Below are positions 1-30,168 of a stretch of DNA of 38,573 nt, in pieces. Below the pieces are notes generated by a model, which saw nothing but the letters and a program-made list of their open reading frames with translations, did not search any database and had not been told where the DNA came from. The stretch is from the IMG/VR virus record IMGVR_UViG_2706794695_000013; one strand, written 5' to 3'. Made by a program: the position numbers and the translations under genes. Numbering within the stretch: the stretch's first letter is position 1; every line of letters starts with the position of its first letter. Source of the DNA: a virus. Lineage: Duplodnaviria > Heunggongvirae > Uroviricota > Caudoviricetes.

Positions 1-2918
1 TTTAATGCCGTCCTGTTCCTGAGACAATACGGCCCGACCACTGGCAGGTTTGCCCTTAATCGTCCAGCCACGCATATCAGGGATCACACCTGACGGATAA
101 ACGGCTGCAAGTTTCGGGTAAGCAGATTTGTCAAAAGTCTGTCCCTGCATCAGGGCATAACCAGACGGAACGGTATCTGATGGCCACGGGATTGGTGCAC
201 CGACTGGGTAGCTTTCTGGTGGAAGATTTTTCGAGGTATAAACTTCTGCCCAGTCTTCCTCAAAACCATAACCGTCTCTTGAAGAACGGTAGAACAGACC
301 ACCATTTCTGTAATGCGCCTTCATCTGCAAGGTCCGGCAACTTCCGACTCCGGTATAGAAGTTAACCAGAATATAGCTGTTGCCAGAGCGGGTGACATTG
401 TAAGCGCCTGATTCGGCATTCCATGGAACGCCACCATCCGCATCGGCATATGTATCCGTTGCCCTTCTGGCAAAAGCAGCCACATGCGCGGCGGTTAAAG
501 TAATATCTTTGGAACCATCAAACTCAACACCAGAAACCAGTCTTGGCGTTTGCAGCTTTGTTGCTGTCAATGCGTTACCGTTCAGACTTGCAGACAGTTT
601 GGTTCCAATAACCAGTTCGCCGGTTGCGTTATCAATAACAAACGGTCTTAATGTATTCCAGCCACCATAAACATCACCTTGATTGGTAAGCAGCAGGTAA
701 GTTTTAGCGCCATCATTACGCCATAATGCACCATACTCCCCACCTATCATTCGAATCTGATTACCACCACGCGCTACAATTTCGTCTGTGGCAAAAAGTT
801 TTTTGCACGACAAGTTATCGTTAACGATTAACGAATGAGACTCATAAAAACCACGCCCACTCTTAAAATCAAGGATAACGTCCGCCGCGATACATTCAGT
901 CGCCGGATTTGTTGCCCCAAACTTATAGGTCGTATCATTAACAACGAGATCAGCACCAGGTGCGGATATTGACAGGCCATCTTCGAGAAACGCAAAAACA
1001 GGGAAAGCAGCGCCATCAACATAGAACACAGAGCGCAAATCATCGCCCTTATTACTCATCATTATTGAGTGGATGGCTCGTTCATTGTTTTGATATTGCC
1101 AGAACATTCCATAAGCATAACGCCCCCTGTCAGTCCAGCCACCAGGCATAACAAATCCGTTAAACTCGCAGTTATTCATCGGATCGCCTGCGATTCGCGT
1201 TGCCGTGGTGATAATGACCCTTGATGCCAGTTCGCTTACTGAGCCAGCAGAACGCATAACAACAACAGGGTAATATTTTCCAGATGTTGCACCTGCAGGA
1301 GCGTTAACCCGCACATAACGCATACCACGCTTATCAGCAAAGTCTGTTTTACTGACCGCGTTAATGTTGTTCAGGAAGCGTCCCTTATCGGGTATATCAG
1401 CGCCGTTCTGGTCTTTCTGCAGACGTTTCTCAGCATTGTCATTGNNNNNNNNNNNNNNNNNNNNNNNNNNNNNNNNNNNNNNNNNNNNNNNNNNNNNNNN
1501 NNNNNNNNNNNNNNNNNNNNNNNNNNNNNNNNNNNNNNNNNNNNNNNNNNNNNNNNNNNNNNNNNNNNNNNNNNNNNNNNNNNNNNNNNNNNNNNNNNNN
1601 NNNNNNNNNNNNNNNNNNNNNNNNNNNNNNNNNNNNNNNNNNNNNNNNNNNNNNNNNNNNNNNNNNNNNNNNNNNNNNNNNNNNNNNNNNNNNNCTTCGC
1701 TGCGGACGCTTGTCTGGTCGCCTCATCTTTTGAAGCAGACGCCGATGATGCCGATGACGCCGCCGAACTGGCGGACGATGCGGCAGCCGTTTTTGAGGAT
1801 TCTGCGCTGGTCTCCGACGCTTTCGCGTTCGTCTCCGATGTCTTCGCTGCGGAAGCAGACCTCGCTGCTGCACTGGCCTGTTCAGTGGCTTCGCCAGCCT
1901 TCGTTGTGGCTGTTGAAGCGGACGATGCGGCGCTTTCTGCCGATTTTCCGGCGGCGCTAGCACTGGCTGAGGCCTGCCCGGCACTTGTTGACGCTGCACT
2001 GGCAGACGACGCAGCCGCTGTTTTTGAGCCTGCTGCTGCGGAGGCACTCTGTGCTGCTGCCGTTTCAGAGGACTTAGCGTTTGTCTCAGACGTCTTTGCC
2101 GCCTTCGCGGAATTTCCTGCCGCCGTTGCCGAGGAAGCGGCATTACTGGCGCTCGAAGCTGCGCTCGTTTCTGATAATTTTGCCGCCTCTTTTGAAGCCG
2201 ACGCATCTCTGGCTGAGGTGGCTGCTTCTGACGCTTTCGTGGTCGCGGTGGATGCAGAAGTGGCAGCTGATTGTTGTGACGCTGCCGCATTCGTTTCTGA
2301 CGTTTTCGCCGCACCGGCACTGGTGGCCGCCGCGCTTTTTGAGGACTCTGCAGCGGCAGCACTTTTTGATGCTTCAGTGGCCTTTGCTGATGCCGTTCCT
2401 GCGCTGGAAGACGCAGACTGAGCCGACGAAGCGGCCTGTCCGGCTGACGTGCTGGCTGCTCGTGCTGAGCCTGCAGCATCAGTCGCACGGGTTGCCGCCT
2501 CACGGGCTGATGTGCTGGCATCGCTGGCTGATTTCTTCGCGGCTGCCGTGTTCTGTGCCACCGCGGACGCGTTACGCGCCACCTCTTCCACCATCAGTTC
2601 AAAGCGGCGCAGTGCCTCAGGACGGGCATCATCCTCCGTCATGGCACCGAGAAAATCATTCAGCGTACCGGGTCGGGAATCTTCATACACGGTGATGGTC
2701 CCGGCATGTGACGGCGGGAATCCTTCCACCAACAGAATAACGCTGTACTGACCGTACTCAACGTCCATGCTGTAACGCCCGGCTTCATCCGGATTTTCTG
2801 AGGCCAGCGTGTTCACCACCACCGTGGTGCTGTTACGTTTTGCTTTCAGCTGGATTGTGCAGTTCTGTACCGGTTTTCCTGTGCCGTCTTTCAGTACACC
2901 TGAAATCTTTACTGCCAT
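1..2918 (-). CDS. stf: Side tail fiber protein, lambda Stf-like; partial (C-terminus beyond window start), interrupted by N gap 1445-1694
   Basis: N-terminus [26 protein letters not shown] matches lambda Stf; ATG at 2918 (track ORF starts at GTG 2924); my manual translation of minus strand 1-1444 is open throughout and ends ...[44 protein letters not shown], a tail-fiber motif. Confidence 0.85.
1445..1694. other. Assembly gap (250 N) inside stf
   Basis: Run of N in the sequence; reading frame is not preserved across it. Confidence 0.95.
1695..2600 (-). repeat. Ala/Ser/Thr-rich low-complexity repeat region within stf
   Basis: Translation is dominated by reiterated short motifs ([18 protein letters not shown]); DNA is GC-rich and repetitive, which produces long spurious ORFs in other frames. 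Confidence 0.6.
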
Positions 2919-2982: not shown

Positions 2983-3582
2983 TCAGAATTTATAACCGAC
3001 ACCCACGATGAAACCGTCAGTGCGCCAGTCGCCACTGCCGGAGCCTTCATAAGCAATATCAATGGCCACGGATTCGGTCGGGTTAAACTGCACGCCAGCT
3101 CCCCACGCCAGAGACGTGTTGCTGTGGCGACCGTCATCACTTCCGGTCAGCACATCGTGCGTTTTCCCCTTGTTGTCAGTTACGCGAAGATAATCCCCGG
3201 AGAAAGTCGACACACGGCTGTAAGCCACACCCGCCATCGCATACGCGCTGAACCATTCATTCACGCGCACAGACGGCCCCGCCATTACGCTGAACCAGCG
3301 GTTACGAACGGAATCTTCATGCCAGCGGGTATCGCTGTAACGGGTCAGCTGGCGATTCTTGTCTCCTGCATAGCTGAATGACGTCACCAGCCCCAGTGTG
3401 TCCGTAAACTCATAACGGTATTTCACGTTAATCCCGTTCAGATCATCACTGCCGGGGACGTTCGTCGAGGCATGAAGATACCCCGCGCTCAGCGTGGACT
3501 GATGTTCAGACGCCCATGCAGGCGCACCGGATACGGCCAGACAAATGGCTGCGGACAAAATTGCTGCACAAACTTTACGCAT
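2983..3582 (-). CDS. lom: Outer membrane protein Lom (Ail/Lom family), lysogenic-conversion gene
   Basis: 199 aa; MRKVCAAILSAAICLAVSGAPAWASEHQSTLSAGYLHA... closely matches lambda Lom, including the signal peptide. Confidence 0.9.
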   Translation of the reverse strand: MRKVCAAILSAAICLAVSGAPAWASEHQSTLSAGYLHASTNVPGSDDLNGINVKYRYEFTDTLGLVTSFSYAGDKNRQLTRYSDTRWHEDSVRNRWFSVMAGPSVRVNEWFSAYAMAGVAYSRVSTFSGDYLRVTDNKGKTHDVLTGSDDGRHSNTSLAWGAGVQFNPTESVAIDIAYEGSGSGDWRTDGFIVGVGYKF

Positions 3583-8420: not shown

Positions 8421-8910
8421 TTACTGCGAAAGTTTGTTAATGGAAAGGAAGCCGCCAAAGTTGCCGACGTTATTGCGAAACTTACAGCCGCTCAGGCATT
8501 TGCTGCATTTATCCTTCGTGATATCGGACGTCGGCTGATCATATTCATCCGCGACCGCCGGACCGTGATAACCGCACTCATCGCCGCGATAGGTCCAGGT
8601 GCAGGTGTTGGCCAGCATGATACGTCCCGGAAAAACGGCACCGTCCGTTTCCGTCGGCGTGNNNNNNNNNNNNNNNNNNNNNNNNNNNNNNNNNNNNNNN
8701 NNNNNNNNNNNNNNNNNNNNNNCCCTGAATGGGATACGCCTGATACTGTCGCCCCTGCCAGGTGACCGGCTCACCTTTTTCGTTCTGCTCATTACAGAAA
8801 AAATAACGTTCTCCACCGACCTCTGTCAGATCGATTTCCCAGAGCACCACCTGGGCTGACTGAGTGAGGCGTGTCGTCTCATGATGTGTTTCCTGTGGAA
8901 TATCCTGCAT
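8421..8910 (-). CDS. L: Tail tip protein L, interrupted and shortened by N gap 8662-8722
   Basis: N-terminal piece MQDIPQETHHETTRLTQSAQVVLWEIDLTEVGGERYFFCNEQNEKGEPVTWQGRQYQ and C-terminal piece ...RIMLANTCTWTYRGDECGY...GGFLSINKLSQ both match lambda L; total span is shorter than a 232-aa L gene. Confidence 0.8.
8662..8722. other. Assembly gap (61 N) inside L
   Basis: Run of N; part of the L coding sequence is missing. Confidence 0.95.
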
Positions 8911-13013: not shown

Positions 13014-13070
13014 GTTCTCCACCTGTAAAAAAGCCCCGAATAACCGGGGCAAATGATGAGTATCGTCCTG

Positions 13071-13814
13071 TTAACCTGCTGCGCTGACAGTCACCGTAGC
13101 CACTGCCACAAAATTCCCGTCAGCGGTCATGCCCACAATGCTGACACTGCCCTGCTTCACGCCTTTCACCGTGGCCACAAGCCCGTTCAGGGTCACCGTG
13201 GCAGTCTGTGGATCTGTCGAATGCACACTGATCGCTTTGTCACTGGCTCCGTCAGGTTTTACTGTAAAGGTCAGCGTGGTGGTTGCTCCCACTTTTACAC
13301 TGGCAGATGCCGGTGCCACCGTCAGCCCGGTAACGCTCACTGTTTCAGTGCCTTCCTCTGCCAGATACGGACGCCCCACACCGCTGATTTTCACTGTGCG
13401 GGTCATCACGTCTTTTGAGGCAATGGTTTTACCCAGTGAACTCAGCCAGCCACGGAAAACATCAACAGTACCGTTGGGATATTTGATACGAAACGCGCAG
13501 ACTTCACCGGAGTCGAACAACTGAACCAGTTTTTTCTGCCCGCTGTCACCCGGACGCCAGGCCAGCGTCGCCGAAGTATCACCAACGGATTTCTGCCCCT
13601 GGGTTGTCGTTTTCCAGTCTGCATCTTCATCATCGAGATAAGTGTCATCTTCTGCATCAGCGGTCATTTCGCCAGGTTGCAGATCCTTCACCATCGCAAG
13701 ACGCAGCCAGTCAGTGTCCGATAAAGGGTTCGCAAACGCATCGCCCTTGCCGGTATACATCCAGAACGTCGTTCCCGCACCTTTCGTTTTTGCCAGTGGA
13801 TTTGGTGTGGTCAT
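13071..13814 (-). CDS. V: Major tail tube protein V with C-terminal Ig-like domain
   Basis: From internal ATG: MTTPNPLAKTKGAGTTFWMYTGKGDAFANPLSDTDWLRLAMVKDLQPGE... matches lambda V. Confidence 0.9.
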   Translation of the reverse strand: MTTPNPLAKTKGAGTTFWMYTGKGDAFANPLSDTDWLRLAMVKDLQPGEMTADAEDDTYLDDEDADWKTTTQGQKSVGDTSATLAWRPGDSGQKKLVQLFDSGEVCAFRIKYPNGTVDVFRGWLSSLGKTIASKDVMTRTVKISGVGRPYLAEEGTETVSVTGLTVAPASASVKVGATTTLTFTVKPDGASDKAISVHSTDPQTATVTLNGLVATVKGVKQGSVSIVGMTADGNFVAVATVTVSAAG

Positions 13815-23589: not shown

Positions 23590-23728
23590 GGATATTTATC
23601 AGGATTTATCGGTTTCTGCCCACGGACAGGTTTATCTGTTCCGGTCAGTGACTTAAGGTTGTGATTCCGGAGGAGTCTTCAGAGAACCAGTAATTCTTCC
23701 TGGTAGCTTTCCTTTGTAGGTTATCCAA

Positions 23729-23739
23729 NNNNNNNNNNN
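23729..23739. other. Assembly gap (11 N) inside the holin gene
   Basis: Run of N. Confidence 0.95.
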
Positions 23740-23811
23740 AAACCAGTACCCGGCACTACCTGCTGAGGTGCCATAGGCGACACCCGTTGTTAACTTATCC
23801 ATGGATTTCAT
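23740..23811 (-). CDS. S: Pinholin (phage 21 S21-type class II holin), N-terminal 24 codons only; remainder lost in N gap
   Basis: [24 protein letters not shown] matches S21/EssD-type holin N-terminus; sequence after the gap does not continue the holin. Confidence 0.7.
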
Positions 23812-23878
23812 AACCCCACCTCGCAGATGCGGGTGCTGTGTAATGGAAATAAAAAGGCCACCTGACGTGGCCACCAGA

Positions 23879-24931
23879 TTATTTCCCCACCAGCTCGTTT
23901 ATCTCTTTCACTGTCTGATTAAACCGCTCTGACTCAAGCTCAACACCTAAGGCCCGACGCCCCAGCGCCATTGCTGCTTTTATTGTGGAACCGGATCCCA
24001 TAAAAAAATCAGCAACCAGATCACCTGGTCGACTACTGGCATTGATTATTTGCCTGAGCATATCCGCCGGTTTCTCACACGGATGTTTCCCCGGGTAGAA
24101 CTGAACGGGTTTATGCATCCAGACATCGGTATAAGGCACGGAGACTGATACGGAGAAATAGCGCCGGAGAGATTTAAACTCATCCAGCAATTCAGAATAT
24201 TTACGATTCAGTGAATCATAAGATGCCACCAGCTGGTGGTGTGGTTGTTCCAGTTGTTGTTCCTGAAACTTCTCTGCCGCTATACGGGAAAACAGTGCCT
24301 GTAACTTCCGATAGTCAGCCTCATTCGGCAACTGCCACTGACTGGCACCAAACCAGTGGGAAACCATATTTTTCTTACCTGTGGCTTCGGCAATTTGTTT
24401 TGCCGTTATACCCAGTTCGGCACGAGCATCCCTGAAATACGATATCAGCGGTGCCATTATGTGCTGTTTGAGTTCCCTTTCTTTTGCCGCATAGCCGTCA
24501 CTTTTGCCGCGATATGGCCCCTGGTAATGTTCAGCAAACAGAACGCGCTCTGTGGCAGGAAAATATGCGCGCAGACTTTCTTTATTACACCCATTCCAAC
24601 GTCCGGACGGCTTCGCCCAGATGATATGGTTAAGCACGTTGAAACGTTCACGCATCATGATCTCAATATCAGATGCCAGGCGATGCCCACAGAACAGGTA
24701 AAGGCTTCCGGCAGGTTTCAACACCCGCCAGAACTGGGCCAGACAGTGGTCCAGCCACTTAAGGTAATCTTCGTCCCCTTTCCACTGATTGTCCCAACCG
24801 TTGGGTTTCACCTTGAAGTAAGGCGGATCGGTAACAATCAGGTCAATGGAATCATCAGGCAGGGACTGAATAAAATGCAGGCAATCAGCGTTGATTAAAT
24901 CAACACTGTTTATTTTTACAGTATTTTTCAT
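23879..24931 (-). CDS. DNA methyltransferase, beta-class N6-adenine/N4-cytosine type (orphan; no cognate nuclease seen)
   Basis: 350 aa; N-terminal DPPY motif (IVTDPPYF) and C-terminal AdoMet-binding FFMGSGST; directly upstream of the holin. Confidence 0.85.
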
Positions 24932-25081
24932 GGATCAGTAAGCGTAACTCTGGTAGGCTCACTCTGCTTTTGCGCTAAAGCAGTGGGCCGTGGTTCGCTT
25001 GTGACCAGTAAGCATGAGCGAATGGCTGGCAGGTGCTACCAACACCCACCAGCCGCCCATTTTCACAGCAGGAAACCGCCA

Positions 25082-25285
25082 TTACTGGCAGCGTCTGAAT
25101 TTATTCCCGTACCCGCCGTTATCCTTCGCCAGACCCGCCAGAACTAACTGAGTCAGTATTAACTGGCACCGGGCTTCGCTTACTCCGGTAGTTCTCGTCA
25201 TCATGCGTGGCGTTACCCACTTGTCAGCAGGTAAGAAATGAAGGACTGCGGCGGCGGTTTCTGTCATATCTTGCTGTTTTAGCAT
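25082..25285 (-). CDS. Hypothetical small protein (67 aa from ATG 25285)
   Basis: ORF between the methylase and the duplicated terminator; GAAGGG-type SD before the internal ATG; no recognisable family. Confidence 0.3.
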   Translation of the reverse strand: MLKQQDMTETAAAVLHFLPADKWVTPRMMTRTTGVSEARCQLILTQLVLAGLAKDNGGYGNKFRRCQ

Positions 25286-25406
25286 GTCTTTTTCCCTTCT
25301 GGTTAACATGACATACCAATAACTCTTGTCTAAAAAGCCAGCAAGATAAAAAGTCAGTATTCACGACCACCAGCGTGTTTACTGTACTGCACCAAGTTTA
25401 CGGGTA

Positions 25407-25431
25407 CAAAAAACCCGCTCAGTGGCGGGTT
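25407..25431 (-). terminator. Terminator-like hairpin, copy 1 of a duplicated element
   Basis: aaaaaacccgc tcagtg gcgggtt; near-identical to the copy at 26085-26111. Confidence 0.5.
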
Positions 25432-25508
25432 GCTATCACAGCTATATATTTACTTATTATGCCGTTACTAACATTTATCTTCGACATATAATCGAAAACA
25501 AGGTTTGC

Positions 25509-25934
25509 TTAAAACTCTGCTTTCATTTTATCCGGGAATTTTTTATTTGCAGCATAATAACTACCAAGTACATAAGCGTTCATTTGCTGCTCTACATCAA
25601 CCCGACATGCCGCACTAGAACAAGCTCCACTGATAAGCCCAAAAGAACTCCCTTTAGCAGAGAGATCAGCTTTGATTTCCTCTACAGTGTTTTTCCCCAT
25701 AGCAACTACACACCCTGTCACAATATATCTAGCTTTCACATCATCCATGCTAAGGATAGTAGTTTTCGCAATTTTGCTGTATCCATCATTTTTATAAACA
25801 TCCATGGCAAACGCACGGCAATCTGTATAATACGGACTTGCTTTAACTTGCGAATACTCAGGTAATTTCATACCTGCACAACCAACTAAACAAAAACCTA
25901 TCGCTGCTATTAATACCTTTTTCATTACAGTCAT
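25509..25934 (-). CDS. Lipoprotein of unknown function (AT-rich moron)
   Basis: Signal peptide with lipobox (MKKVLIAAIGFCLVGC); local GC content clearly below the flanking phage genes. Confidence 0.7.
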   Translation of the reverse strand: MTVMKKVLIAAIGFCLVGCAGMKLPEYSQVKASPYYTDCRAFAMDVYKNDGYSKIAKTTILSMDDVKARYIVTGCVVAMGKNTVEEIKADLSAKGSSFGLISGACSSAACRVDVEQQMNAYVLGSYYAANKKFPDKMKAEF

Positions 25935-26084
25935 AACCTAGAAGCATCATTGAAACTAATTTATTAAATAACCATCGAGTTTCTGGAATACAGACGTTAA
26001 CCATCTCTCCAAAATCTAAAAGATAATAAGAAAAAATGTTTAACGCACCAATCCATTTCATAGTTTCATGAGACATCAGGCACA

Positions 26085-26111
26085 AAAAACCCGCTCAGCG
26101 GCGGGTTTTTG
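26085..26111 (-). terminator. Bidirectional rho-independent terminator, candidate tR-prime downstream of Q
   Basis: aaaaaacccgc tcagcg gcgggttttt: GC stem flanked by A-run and T-run. Confidence 0.6.
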
Positions 26112-26153
26112 ACATTTACCAACGGTAGACATACAAGGCCCATCGTTGAGAAA

Positions 26154-26182
26154 ATCTTATCCATATTTTTTGAAAAATGCAA
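26154..26182 (-). promoter_or_regulatory. Candidate late promoter (PR-prime-like) between Q and the terminator
   Basis: On the minus strand TTGCAT, 17-nt spacer, TAAGAT; position is as expected for a lambdoid late promoter/qut region. Confidence 0.25.
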
Positions 26183-26213
26183 GTATCACGTCGACATCTT
26201 CGGCGAAAATTAT

Positions 26214-26966
26214 CTATCTTGTCACTTTTCTCAATTGCGATTCAGCATACGCTTCTTCCTGCCAGCACTTTGTAACCAGTTTATTAATAACGTCTGCATA
26301 TCCTTTGTACCACTGATAATCCGTCAGGTCCGGTACCAGTTTCTGGACATGATGCCGCGCCAGTGTGGTTGGTAAACGGCTAAACCGGTTGCCATTGCAA
26401 CGCCCACAAATCTTATAAACAGGCACACCATGAAGCCGGGTTCTTTTTTCATCCAGGACAATACCTTTACCCTTACACCCTCTGCACGCTGTGCTGACTT
26501 CTCCCTTACCATGGCAATGCTGACATAGTTCCTTCACCCACTCTTCCTTGATAACAGATTCCCCGCTTCTGGAGTGTTTCACCACTTCGCGCAATACATT
26601 ATGAAATCCAGTACCAGCACAATGCTCACAGCGAGCCTTACTTGCCGCAGACCTGGAATAATCAGCAAAGGCAAAATTCACAAGGTAAGGGATGATCTGT
26701 AACCGGGTTTCTTCACTCAATTTGTTCAATGTCGGGTTATCCAGTGCCATCGCGTAATTGAGCAGACCTTCAATCGCAAATTGAGGATCCTGAACACCAA
26801 CTTTTGCCAGGAATAAGGCAAACCCAAGCGGTGCTTTCGACTGCACCATCCCCTGCGCAGCCATCACATCCGTAATCGTTAAACCACCTGAGCCTGTCGC
26901 CGGTGCGTCATCGCTCAATTTTGGAGATTTTGGGGAGTAATATTTTGGTAAGGCTTCAAGGTTCAT
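26214..26966 (-). CDS. Late-gene antiterminator Q-like protein with DnaJ-type Cys-rich zinc finger
   Basis: From ATG 26966 (GGAG SD): MNLEALPKYYSPKSPK...; four CxxCxGxG-type repeats (CEHCAGTG, CQHCHGKG, CRGCKGKG, CGRCNGNR); last gene of the nin-type region before the late promoter and lysis genes. Confidence 0.55.
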   Translation of the reverse strand: MNLEALPKYYSPKSPKLSDDAPATGSGGLTITDVMAAQGMVQSKAPLGFALFLAKVGVQDPQFAIEGLLNYAMALDNPTLNKLSEETRLQIIPYLVNFAFADYSRSAASKARCEHCAGTGFHNVLREVVKHSRSGESVIKEEWVKELCQHCHGKGEVSTACRGCKGKGIVLDEKRTRLHGVPVYKICGRCNGNRFSRLPTTLARHHVQKLVPDLTDYQWYKGYADVINKLVTKCWQEEAYAESQLRKVTR

Positions 26967-26979
26967 GCTCGTTCTCCAC

Positions 26980-27975
26980 TTACGCCAATACGCCAATTGC
27001 CAGCGCACGATCGATAAAACGAAATATCAGCTCCAGCTGGGAGCCATACTTCTCTTCAAATGCCACGGTATCCGCATGCAGCTCGTCGTGATGCTTTCTG
27101 CACAAAGGCAACACAAAGAGGTCATGCGCTTTTGTACCCATTCCACCCTGACCGTGGCCTATCAGGTGGTGGGGATCATCAGCAGGCTTTCCACAACATG
27201 CACACGGCTGTGTCTTAACCCAGCGCGTGTACTTTTCATTAACCCAGCGGCGGCGTTTTGGGCGTAACATAAAAGACTCCGGCGACTCCGGATCCACTTT
27301 CAGCGCCAGCACCTTTTTTGCCTTATCCTGGATGATGCTGGTGGCAGGAACCGAAGGCACAAGGTCACTTTCCCGGGTGACAGACGGCACAACAGGCTTT
27401 GGTAATCTCAGTGCCTTACGGGCTGCACTTTCCGGTAAGGCATCCGCCAGGTCATTACGAATCAGCCACCAGCACAGTTCCGGCATTGTCACAACGTGAC
27501 TATCATCAAAACCGAGATCCCGACGCACAACAGACAACACCCAGCGGGCACAGTTATCCGTTGCCATTGATTCCAGCCGTTCCGTGAACTGATCGCGCAG
27601 CTGGTTATCGCAGTGCCAGCACAGACGGATTGCGCCCGGAGCGTGTCGCATTGTGGTCATGTTCTCGCTGTGCCAGTCGGAATGAGGCCACTGGCAGCCT
27701 TTTTCACGAAGTAACCAGCTTTCAAGACATTCCACGCCACCAGCACGACGGATCACTGCCTCATTGCGGAACACGGCCCGAACGGCAGGATCATCCGCCA
27801 GCGGTTGTGATGCCGCCGGAACGGCACCACTGGCGAAAGATGAATAACGTTCCGGCTCAGGCTCCAGCAGAACACGCCCCTGCATAAACAGGGGCATCAG
27901 CTCTGAACCTGGCCTGAACAATACGATCCCCATACGCGGGGCAATTTCAGGGGTCAGTAGTGCTCTCACGGTCAC
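26980..27975 (-). CDS. DUF968-type nin-region protein with C-terminal HNH-like Cys/His motif
   Basis: 331 aa; C-terminus PCACCGKPADDPHHLIGHG...CRKHHDELH. Confidence 0.55.
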   Translation of the reverse strand: MTVRALLTPEIAPRMGIVLFRPGSELMPLFMQGRVLLEPEPERYSSFASGAVPAASQPLADDPAVRAVFRNEAVIRRAGGVECLESWLLREKGCQWPHSDWHSENMTTMRHAPGAIRLCWHCDNQLRDQFTERLESMATDNCARWVLSVVRRDLGFDDSHVVTMPELCWWLIRNDLADALPESAARKALRLPKPVVPSVTRESDLVPSVPATSIIQDKAKKVLALKVDPESPESFMLRPKRRRWVNEKYTRWVKTQPCACCGKPADDPHHLIGHGQGGMGTKAHDLFVLPLCRKHHDELHADTVAFEEKYGSQLELIFRFIDRALAIGVLA

Positions 27976-29195: not shown

Positions 29196-29518
29196 ACTTT
29201 CAGGCCTCTCTCATGTAACCAGTGGGTTGCACGCAGCCTGGCGTTTTCCTCACCGGCAAGCAGTGAGCGGATAATCCCGACCGCCTCGCTGTCGTCGTCC
29301 TTCACCGCGGTATGAAGAGTGATACCCCGGGCCATGCCACGCTTTATCGTGATGACGCCTTTTTTCTCCAGTGCGCGAAGATGTTCCACCGCTGCATTCA
29401 CTGAACGGTATCCCAGCATGGTTGCCACCTCCTGATTGGTTGGCGGGAAGCCACGTTCTTTCTGGTAAGAAATCAGCATATCCAGCACCTGCTGCTGGCA
29501 TTGAGTTAACGTCGTCAT
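29192..29518 (-). CDS. LexA-type winged-helix DNA-binding protein (DNA-binding domain only)
   Basis: 108 aa; LTQCQQQVLDMLISYQKERGFPPTNQEVATMLGYRSVNAAVEHLRALEKKGVI resembles the LexA N-terminal domain. Confidence 0.55.
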   Translation of the reverse strand: MTTLTQCQQQVLDMLISYQKERGFPPTNQEVATMLGYRSVNAAVEHLRALEKKGVITIKRGMARGITLHTAVKDDDSEAVGIIRSLLAGEENARLRATHWLHERGLKV

Positions 29519-30168
29519 GCCGCCATCTCCCTGACCAGTTTTTCCGCCTGCTGGCGAACCTGCGCCAGAAACGCCTCACCACATGCCTCAAGTTCATCGC
29601 GCCCGATGTAGCTGATTGCCGGTCCCTTCCAGGTCTTGTCGAAAACAGCAATAGCACCAGCGAAGAAAGCGCCTGTCGGCACCTGCTTCTCGTCCTTCGG
29701 GATAAACCAGGCAGGCAGTTCAAAACCAATACGCCCGCGAATAAAAGCAATATGATCTGCATCTTCCGGCCACCACACTTCGCTGGTGGCAGCTTTGATC
29801 AGGAAAACATAGCGTCCGCCCTTATCACGCATGGCACTGGCATGTTTCATGATGTAACGCATGCCGGTGATGTATTGCCCTTCATGCTGACTGGCGCGGC
29901 TGTACGGGGGATTACCAAAGGCAGCACCTTTAAGCTCCGCAAGACGTTCAGACCAGTCATGCGCCAGCGCGTTGTCTTCCGCAGTGTAATAAGCGGCACA
30001 TTTGGCGTTATCACCATCAGTGAACAGATCCAGAACAAACGGGCCAAACAGGGTGTTAATTCCCCAGAAAATGTTATCCGGCGTGCGCCACTGATCGCCC
30101 ACTTCCTTCAGTTCATGGGCTGGTTTGTTCCGCAGCTCCACCAGCGCCTGGCAATATTTATTACTCAT
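29515..30168 (-). CDS. Phage Dam-type N6-adenine DNA methyltransferase
   Basis: From ATG 30168: MSNKYCQALVEL...; catalytic NPPY motif (AFGNPPYSRA). Confidence 0.8.
   Translation of the reverse strand: MSNKYCQALVELRNKPAHELKEVGDQWRTPDNIFWGINTLFGPFVLDLFTDGDNAKCAAYYTAEDNALAHDWSERLAELKGAAFGNPPYSRASQHEGQYITGMRYIMKHASAMRDKGGRYVFLIKAATSEVWWPEDADHIAFIRGRIGFELPAWFIPKDEKQVPTGAFFAGAIAVFDKTWKGPAISYIGRDELEACGEAFLAQVRQQAEKLVREMAA

Follow-up and report, generated by a model that had tools for sequence, protein, structure and literature searches.

The locus considered here raises the question of what a DNA methyltransferase without a restriction partner is doing in front of the lysis genes of a prophage, and when in the life cycle of the phage it would act. 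The gene lies at positions 23879..24931 on the minus strand of a 38,573-nucleotide sequence of a virus of the Caudoviricetes (IMG/VR record IMGVR_UViG_2706794695_000013), which as a whole is referred to below as the window. The window is a lambdoid prophage, in the surroundings of the gene 100% identical to a prophage of Escherichia coli A14 and, over long stretches, 97-98% identical to the phages PhiR55_1, PhiR40_1, mEp460, and Ayreon. We consider it probable that the gene encodes an enzyme of the M.EcoGII family which belongs to the Q-dependent late transcript and gives the progeny DNA a broad anti-restriction methylation. The basis for this reading in the present analysis consists of the family membership of the protein, its intact motifs, its position in the late operon, and the lack of an accompanying endonuclease.

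The methyltransferase is encoded by an open reading frame (ORF) of 350 codons, which spans exactly 23879..24931 (-) from the ATG to the stop codon. Residues 29-341 of the product match the Pfam family PF01555 (N6_N4_Mtase; E=2.2e-42, 145.9 bits vs. a curated cut-off of 26.7 bits), and the match covers positions 1-220 of the 221 positions of the profile, i.e., runs from end to end; the protein is also matched by the PADLOC model MTase_II (type II methyltransferase, E=3e-152) and by the DNA methyltransferase families of PHROG. The first-pass annotation, made from the sequence and its translated ORFs, had described a 350-residue methylase with a DPPY catalytic motif and an FFMGSGST S-adenosylmethionine (AdoMet) motif; this description agrees with the ORF and the Pfam match, the two motifs starting at residues 35 and 309, respectively, and withstands alignment, their residues being invariant across 25 homologues. 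Since the catalytic motif IV is N-terminal and the AdoMet motif I is C-terminal, the protein belongs to the beta class of N6-adenine DNA methyltransferases. The best sequence matches among proteins of solved structure (M.BceJIV, M.RsrI, M.MboIIA, CcrM, and M1.HpyAVI) are all beta-class enzymes, and the same enzymes are the best fold matches. The AlphaFold2 model is confident in the core and helical throughout residues 146-255; its overall pLDDT (predicted local distance difference test) is 69, with values below 50 in the linkers, and as a guide to specificity the model was dropped because the linkers are too uncertain.

As to the family, the beta-class enzyme M.EcoGII (349 residues) originates from an E. 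coli O104:H4 C227-11 prophage and has been described as belonging to "a very large family" with members in the prophages of E. coli and the phages of enterobacteria (Murray et al., 2018; PMC5778455). Its substrates are double-stranded DNA, single-stranded DNA and RNA, where it methylates adenines whatever the surrounding sequence; it also accepts RNA:DNA hybrids in vitro, is silent in the lysogen, and is deleterious on expression (PMC5778455). Enzymes of the family are built of a Rossmann catalytic core and a helical recognition domain, with a flexible linker between the two (Ochiai et al., 2024; PMC11551740). The window protein is identical to M.EcoGII in 281 of 349 positions over its full length (80.5%, about 81%), with 89% identity in the N-terminal part of the core, 75% in the linker and recognition region, and 76% in the C-terminal part of the core; about 66 substitutions separate the two proteins, the linker and recognition region accounting for 31, and all these figures, like those for the ancestors below, are good to within a few residues. 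Its identity to the reconstructed ancestor Anc291 is 89% overall and 86% in the linker and recognition region, and its identity to another ancestor, SUPREM (Anc284), is 70%. These two are inferred sequences rather than natural proteins, and their site-specificity was profiled on RNA; along with M.EcoGII, they were tested and found to be largely non-site-specific (Ochiai et al., 2024; PMC11551740). With identities of 81, 89, and 70% to these tested non-specific enzymes, the window protein falls within the sequence space that they delimit. A comparison with the database cluster nearest to the printed M.EcoGII sequence (P0017, 92.6%), to which the identity of the window protein is 83%, leads to the same conclusion. 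Judging by these comparisons, the window methyltransferase is a close relative of M.EcoGII and a member of a family already characterized, and it most likely methylates adenine with little or no sequence preference. With M.EcoGII and M.EcoGI it shares the beta-class order of motifs, a length of 349-350 residues, a prophage home, a single polypeptide, and a central recognition domain that is predicted to be helical.

It could be argued that the enzyme is instead a sequence-specific orphan, which either protects the phage from a single restriction system or regulates phage gene expression or packaging in the manner of Dam or CcrM. Most PF01555 enzymes are indeed site-specific, including the best solved relatives (M.BceJIV, RsrI, MboIIA, and CcrM), the nearest characterized site-specific relative of M.EcoGII is M.PflMI (CCANNNNNTGG), and the region of the recognition domain differs from that of M.EcoGII by approximately 25%. 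However, the three proteins that bracket the window protein are all non-site-specific on testing, homologues with ~93% amino-acid similarity to M.EcoGI/GII have already been listed as "nonspecific" and inactive in lysogens (PMC6602927), and the prophage has a separate methyltransferase of the Dam type in its early region. We therefore consider site specificity unlikely, while giving it more weight than any of the other alternatives discussed below.

The gene is by no means a rarity. Of 5426 complete E. coli genomes, 1255 carry it, and at nucleotide identities of at least 97% it occurs in the phages SfV (where it is annotated as "orf48: unknown"), cdtI, mEp460, and Ayreon; the identity is 86% in Stx2c phages. 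(An "orf48" mentioned in a preprint on accessory genes is a different gene and not that of SfV.) Thus, the methyltransferase itself is known, widespread and in its usual place, being a naturally occurring allele of an enzyme family that is available commercially and is carried by about a quarter of the complete E. coli genomes.

The absence of a partner was considered in a broader set of loci. We collected 80 loci from different bacterial species containing relatives of the methyltransferase (62-93% identity), together with 77 viral loci, and in the former clustered all ORFs of at least 110 amino acids within 3 kb of the methyltransferase gene. The recurrent neighbours turned out to be lysozymes, holins, three kinds of Q, NinG, DUF968, RusA, Rha/Ant, and the small terminase; no restriction endonuclease family was found among the recurrent clusters within this distance in the 80 loci. 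In the window, none of the neighbours of the methyltransferase matched a nuclease, restriction or defence family. The position between Q and the lysis genes, without an endonuclease, is conserved in the 80 genome loci and the 77 viral loci. The initial description of the gene as an orphan with no adjacent restriction gene thus holds for the window and for some 160 related loci, and the finding named there as one that would refute it, a cognate endonuclease adjacent to the gene in complete assemblies, did not appear among the recurrent neighbours in the 80 loci.

These data bear directly on the idea that the gene is the leftover half of a decayed restriction-modification system. The PADLOC label of a type II methyltransferase and the missing partner are what one would expect of such a remnant. 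Yet the gene keeps the same Q-to-lysis interval, together with a conserved leader of its own, from Escherichia to Providencia and Xenorhabdus, its recurrent neighbours include no endonuclease family, and there is no pseudogene-sized gap beside it, the flanks being a 150-nucleotide leader and a terminator; moreover, a non-specific methyltransferase can have no sequence-matched endonuclease at all. We find decay of such a system hardly credible. Of the three roles proposed in the first-pass annotation, the protection of phage DNA fits the data, while the decayed system is contradicted by the conserved endonuclease-free position and the alteration of host epigenetics by the published silence of the relatives in lysogens.

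Two further observations concern the neighbourhood in the 80 loci. One of the neighbour clusters has a match to a domain resembling the Thoeris anti-defence protein Tad2, and a C5-cytosine methyltransferase of 615 amino acids is found near the gene in four loci; the interval between Q and the lysis genes may be collecting further counter-defence genes.

The place of the gene in the late operon can be described in the direction of transcription, all features being located on the minus strand. The antiterminator Q (26214..26966, 250 amino acids from the ATG used by RefSeq for the identical A14 prophage) matches Pfam PF03589 (Antiterm, E=7e-54) and the PHROG family "anti-termination protein Q-like," and an antitermination protein is annotated at this position in A14 and Ayreon. 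It is followed by a candidate late promoter pR' (26142..26182), recognized by its similarity to that of lambda: a -35 element TTGCAT (26182-26177) and a -10 element TAAGAT (26159-26154) are separated by a 17-nucleotide spacer, and the -10 element is followed by a lambda-like initial transcribed/pause element AACGATGGG, with AACGAT at 26147-26142. The sequence downstream of the two elements is TTTCTCAACGATGGG, the lambda pR' counterpart being TTGACT...TAAATT TGACTCAACGATGGG; overall, positions 26188-26139 are 74% identical to the lambda pR' region over 50 nucleotides (E=0.014). A consensus promoter scan missed this site, only three of the six positions of its -35 element matching the consensus. 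We infer from the similarity that the TTGCAT/TAAGAT region is a late promoter with a promoter-proximal pause element. Downstream of it there are a tR'-like intrinsic terminator (26080..26110; AAAAACCCGCCGCTGAGCGGGTTTTTTGTG), which has annotated equivalents in Ayreon and SfV and is overlapped by weak Rfam leader-terminator matches, and a second intrinsic terminator (25404..25431; AACCCGCCACTGAGCGGGTTTTTTGT), which was detected by a terminator scan and is annotated in Ayreon. A 67-codon ORF (25082..25285) and a spacer of 150 nucleotides (24932..25081) then lead to the methyltransferase gene, a few bases past whose stop codon the terminator scan placed a third terminator (23856..23872; GGCCACGTCAGGTGGCC TTTTTATTTC), at the same place where Ayreon and SfV have annotated terminators. 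The holin gene of the EssD type comes next (its 5' part at 23740..23811, start at 23811) and is followed by the genes for lysozyme, Rz, and terminase. The order Q, methyltransferase, holin, with the three terminators, is common to Ayreon, A14, and SfV. The first-pass placement of the gene between the late promoter and the holin agrees with this order.

The methyltransferase gene is thus located downstream of a Q-dependent promoter and behind two terminators, and this position offers a simple mechanistic reason for the silence of M.EcoGI and M.EcoGII published for lysogens. Transcription from the late promoter would end at the tR'-like terminator in the lysogen, and the toxic enzyme would not be made; upon induction, the RNA polymerase modified by Q would read through the terminators, so that the enzyme would be produced while the phage DNA is being replicated and packaged. 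A promoter of its own for the methyltransferase was considered and rejected: the consensus scan showed no enrichment of promoter-like sites (5 found vs. 5.3 expected), with none in the leader. The same evidence bears on the possibility that the gene is a lysogenic-conversion factor rewriting the host methylome, as some prophage methyltransferases are known to do (for instance, M.EcoGIII of a Stx phage; PMC6602927). Apart from the terminators in front of the gene and the failure to detect a promoter for it, this possibility is opposed by the fact that M.EcoGI and M.EcoGII are unexpressed in the lysogen and harmful once expressed, as well as by the methylomes of O111 lysogens which, while carrying homologues, show only GATC and CTGCAG methylation (PMC6602927). 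A role in the lysogen is, in our opinion, very improbable.

The preferred reading, namely, anti-restriction methylation by a late enzyme, would proceed as follows. The progeny genomes would leave the cell with many N6-methyladenines, and restriction by type I, II, and III systems would be blunted in the next host. Partial methylation should suffice for this purpose, as argued by Murray et al. (PMC5778455). The structured leader without a Shine-Dalgarno sequence, described below, would keep translation low or make it conditional. Non-specificity, silence in the lysogen, and toxicity are attributed to the window enzyme by analogy with its published close relatives, and a benefit in vivo in the form of resistance to restriction would be expected. 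Given the position in the late operon, a direct test of the anti-restriction role is possible with induced phage.

Several points weigh against this reading and are best considered together. About one residue in five is different in this allele and in M.EcoGII, which weakens the presumption of its non-specificity, and the M.EcoGII and ancestor sequences used for the comparison were machine-read from the PDF of Table S1 of PMC11551740, with a few misreads. For the late promoter and its start site, the assignment is one by similarity only. A plasmid heavily methylated by M.EcoGII transforms even non-restricting E. coli 4-5 orders of magnitude worse (PMC5778455). Finally, our literature search found no report of virion hypermethylation, or of a gain in plating on restricting hosts, for phages of this kind. 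As for the plasmid, its poor transformation suggests that heavy methylation may be costly and that the dose of the enzyme needs limiting. A search of the literature on M.EcoGII in connection with late promoters, induction, and virion DNA returned nothing beyond the enzyme papers and one review; a lead concerning helper-embedded satellites proved irrelevant.

A further alternative relates to the substrate. The main target in vivo could be RNA, or single-stranded intermediates of replication or packaging, in which case the enzyme would serve phage gene expression or host shut-off instead of anti-restriction; this is conceivable insofar as M.EcoGII acts in vitro on single-stranded DNA, RNA, and RNA:DNA hybrids, and the reconstructed ancestors are strongly active on RNA. 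DNA is, however, a far better substrate of M.EcoGII (initial velocity 11.1 vs. 0.12), and no in vivo evidence for such a role was found; we regard it as improbable.

The more interesting part of the locus is what precedes the methyltransferase gene, that is, the leader and the small winged-helix gene, for neither of which did we find a description; the publications on M.EcoGII and M.EcoGI were found to contain no description of the late-operon position, the leader, or the winged-helix gene. The leader is a conserved structured segment of ~140 nucleotides (24926..25072, minus strand), which reaches and includes the ATG of the methyltransferase gene. A Shine-Dalgarno sequence is lacking, while a GATC located three nucleotides before the ATG is almost invariant. 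An alignment of 44 leader sequences drawn from related mobile elements (Escherichia, Mixta, Enterobacter, Kosakonia, Buttiauxella, Rosenbergiella, Providencia, Morganella, Yersinia, and others) has a mean column identity of 79%. The only copy that the covariance model built from this alignment (R1) detects in the window scores 160.7 bits and spans 24926..25072; the model also detects one copy in each of 57 of the 80 genome loci, always ending at position +6 relative to the ATG, with nothing else in 949 kb; it has no match in the 19 loci of Xenorhabdus and Photorhabdus, where the spacer is shorter and different. Among viral contigs, an exact 21-nucleotide stretch from the core of the leader occurs at 81 sites; 77 of these have the methyltransferase downstream, as far away as expected, and two are at contig ends; at the other two, the leader stops after ~50 nucleotides, and an AraC-like gene stands in the place of the methyltransferase.

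On the viral contigs L101 (~1940-2092) and L139 (~13060-13210), the winged-helix gene and the first ~50 nucleotides of the leader are present, after which the sequences diverge, and the gene replacing the methyltransferase encodes an AraC-like regulator of ~240 amino acids. Another viral contig, L143, contains two full copies of the leader (287-432 and 3272-3419) on the same strand, ~3 kb apart, which suggests two methyltransferase cassettes in tandem.

That the leader is folded is supported by covariation. Compensatory double changes were found in 13 of 30 base pairs, a number reached in none of 500 column shuffles and falling to 2-5 when the pairing was slid by one to three columns; these counts refer to hand-drawn alternative structures, the RNAalifold consensus being only partial, with a weak covariation term. 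Most of this support comes from the P2 hairpin (GGCUGG..CCAGCC) and the P3 helix (UUCGCU/AGCGAA). The minimum free energy of the window leader is -63.6 kcal/mol (z=-4.3 vs. shuffled sequences). In the thermodynamic ensemble, as a mean of the 44 sequences, positions -4 to -14 are predicted to be mostly paired with an upstream GGUCA..AAGC segment, with an unpaired probability of 0.07-0.3, except for two bases near 0.6. The helices P1 and P5 exclude each other, and P3 competes with the helix of the start region. We infer that the leader is a 5' untranslated region which limits or gates translation of the toxic enzyme.

Other interpretations of this segment were also considered. A small protein gene was rejected, as the ORFs across the loci are spurious and lie in three frames, and single-base insertions and deletions are common in the conserved core. 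In P3 and P4, A-C mismatches outnumber G-U pairs, the reverse being true of P2, P5, and the start-region helix, and this does not settle which strand folds; an antisense RNA or a terminator on the opposite strand was contemplated in view of this pattern and set aside, as no promoter supports it. A scan of 23600..26400 against Rfam at E<=1 gave three chance-level matches, none of them over 24926..25072, and a literature search for the core, with either strand and with the RNA form, returned no paper. If it controls translation, the leader may possibly represent a new RNA family.

The ORF directly upstream of the leader (25082..25285) encodes a stand-alone protein of 67 amino acids, equivalent to SfV orf47 and belonging to PHROG 331 (function unknown), relatives of which are named "TrmB family transcriptional regulator" by NCBI. 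Its AlphaFold2 model (pLDDT 87) consists of three helices followed by two strands, and the fold matches include the Z-alpha domain of ADAR1 (the best one, with a template modeling score of 0.85), TrmBL2, IclR, NsrR, and the mRNA-binding domain of SelB, all at weak E-values of about 5e-3. An identification as a Z-alpha domain was rejected on account of the weak E-value and of the many unrelated winged helices scoring alike, and the match is taken at the level of the fold. In 53 of the 80 genome loci (including the Xenorhabdus/Photorhabdus group) and in 71 of the 77 viral loci, the methyltransferase is immediately preceded by a homologue; in 22 loci, the leader is kept and the ORF is absent. The 67-residue protein is a frequent but dispensable companion of the methyltransferase.

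The three elements taken together allow a tentative proposal, which we put forward as possible rather than probable: the winged-helix gene, the leader, and the methyltransferase gene would form a conserved three-part cassette, in which the leader acts as a cis-regulatory RNA closing the start of translation, and either the winged-helix protein, in a manner resembling Com and mom, or a change in GATC methylation opens it, so that the lethal enzyme is made only in a brief, metered pulse at a late stage of infection; a leader-like sequence in lambda (see below) would be a relic of such a cassette. If the leader and the winged-helix gene do control translation, this would be a new case in which a phage counter-defence gene is gated post-transcriptionally.

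Like this locus, the com-mom operon of phage Mu has a function for DNA modification that is toxic and, in lysogens, silent. In Mu, a small ORF comes first, and after it an RNA structure covers the beginning of the modification gene; in the window the 67-codon ORF, the structured leader, and the start without a Shine-Dalgarno sequence come at the same relative places. Com, however, is a zinc-finger protein, and Mom is not a methyltransferase, whereas the ORF of the window appears to encode a winged helix; the proteins are unrelated, and the ORF is missing from about a third of the loci that have the leader. The resemblance should be understood as an analogy only. Likewise phage-borne and promiscuous in adenine methylation are the enzymes Hia5, Hin1523, and Nma1821 of Mu-like prophages (Drozdz et al., 2012; PMC3299994), the genes of which sit where the late anti-restriction modification gene (mom) would be; they differ in belonging to the alpha class, with a reversed order of motifs, and are unrelated in sequence to M.EcoGII. 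Enzymes of the M.EcoGV/M.EcoVT2Dam type, found in lambdoid and Stx phages, are also orphan phage adenine methyltransferases, but they belong to another family, are GATC-specific (PMC6602927), and are encoded in the nin region and not in the late operon. One of them, of the phage Dam type, is the second orphan adenine methyltransferase of the same prophage and is encoded in its nin region (29515..30168, minus strand), the gene being annotated as "phage N-6-adenine-methyltransferase" in A14 and as "dam" in SfV.

As to lambda, it has no methyltransferase between Q and S, yet a weak match to R1 is present just upstream of S, at 45013-45155 (positions 1214-1356 of the lambda segment L205; 19.7 bits, E about 5e-4 in 1.8 kb). 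In this match the P2 hairpin is rebuilt by compensatory changes from different bases, GGCAGGAGG..CCUCCUGCC. It may be a relic of a lost cassette, though the evidence is thin.

The remaining genes of the region can be described briefly. Just upstream of Q there is a gene for a DUF968/HNH protein (26980..27975, minus strand) with a C-terminal HNH-like motif; it is kept in most of the related loci, and no link to the methyltransferase could be discerned. Between the first two terminators lies a gene for a putative lipoprotein of 141 amino acids (25509..25934, minus strand; PHROG 4748, function unknown), apparently a moron; the GC content of its segment is low (36-40%), and SfV lacks it. It is co-transcribed with the methyltransferase gene and is, at the same time, outside the methyltransferase cassette. 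The two terminators that bracket it are near-identical hairpins, AACCCGCC(G/A)CTGAGCGGGTTTTTTGT, and SfV has a single terminator; it looks as if the moron was inserted along with a duplicated terminator. The holin gene is cut short by a run of 11 N at 23729-23739, which takes the place of 423 bp of the otherwise 100% identical A14 prophage, where essD has its 3' part and a YdfR-family gene the greater part of its length; the gap thus makes the holin ORF of the window an artefact. Besides this run (23729..23739), the window contains two others, at 1445..1694 and 8662..8722.

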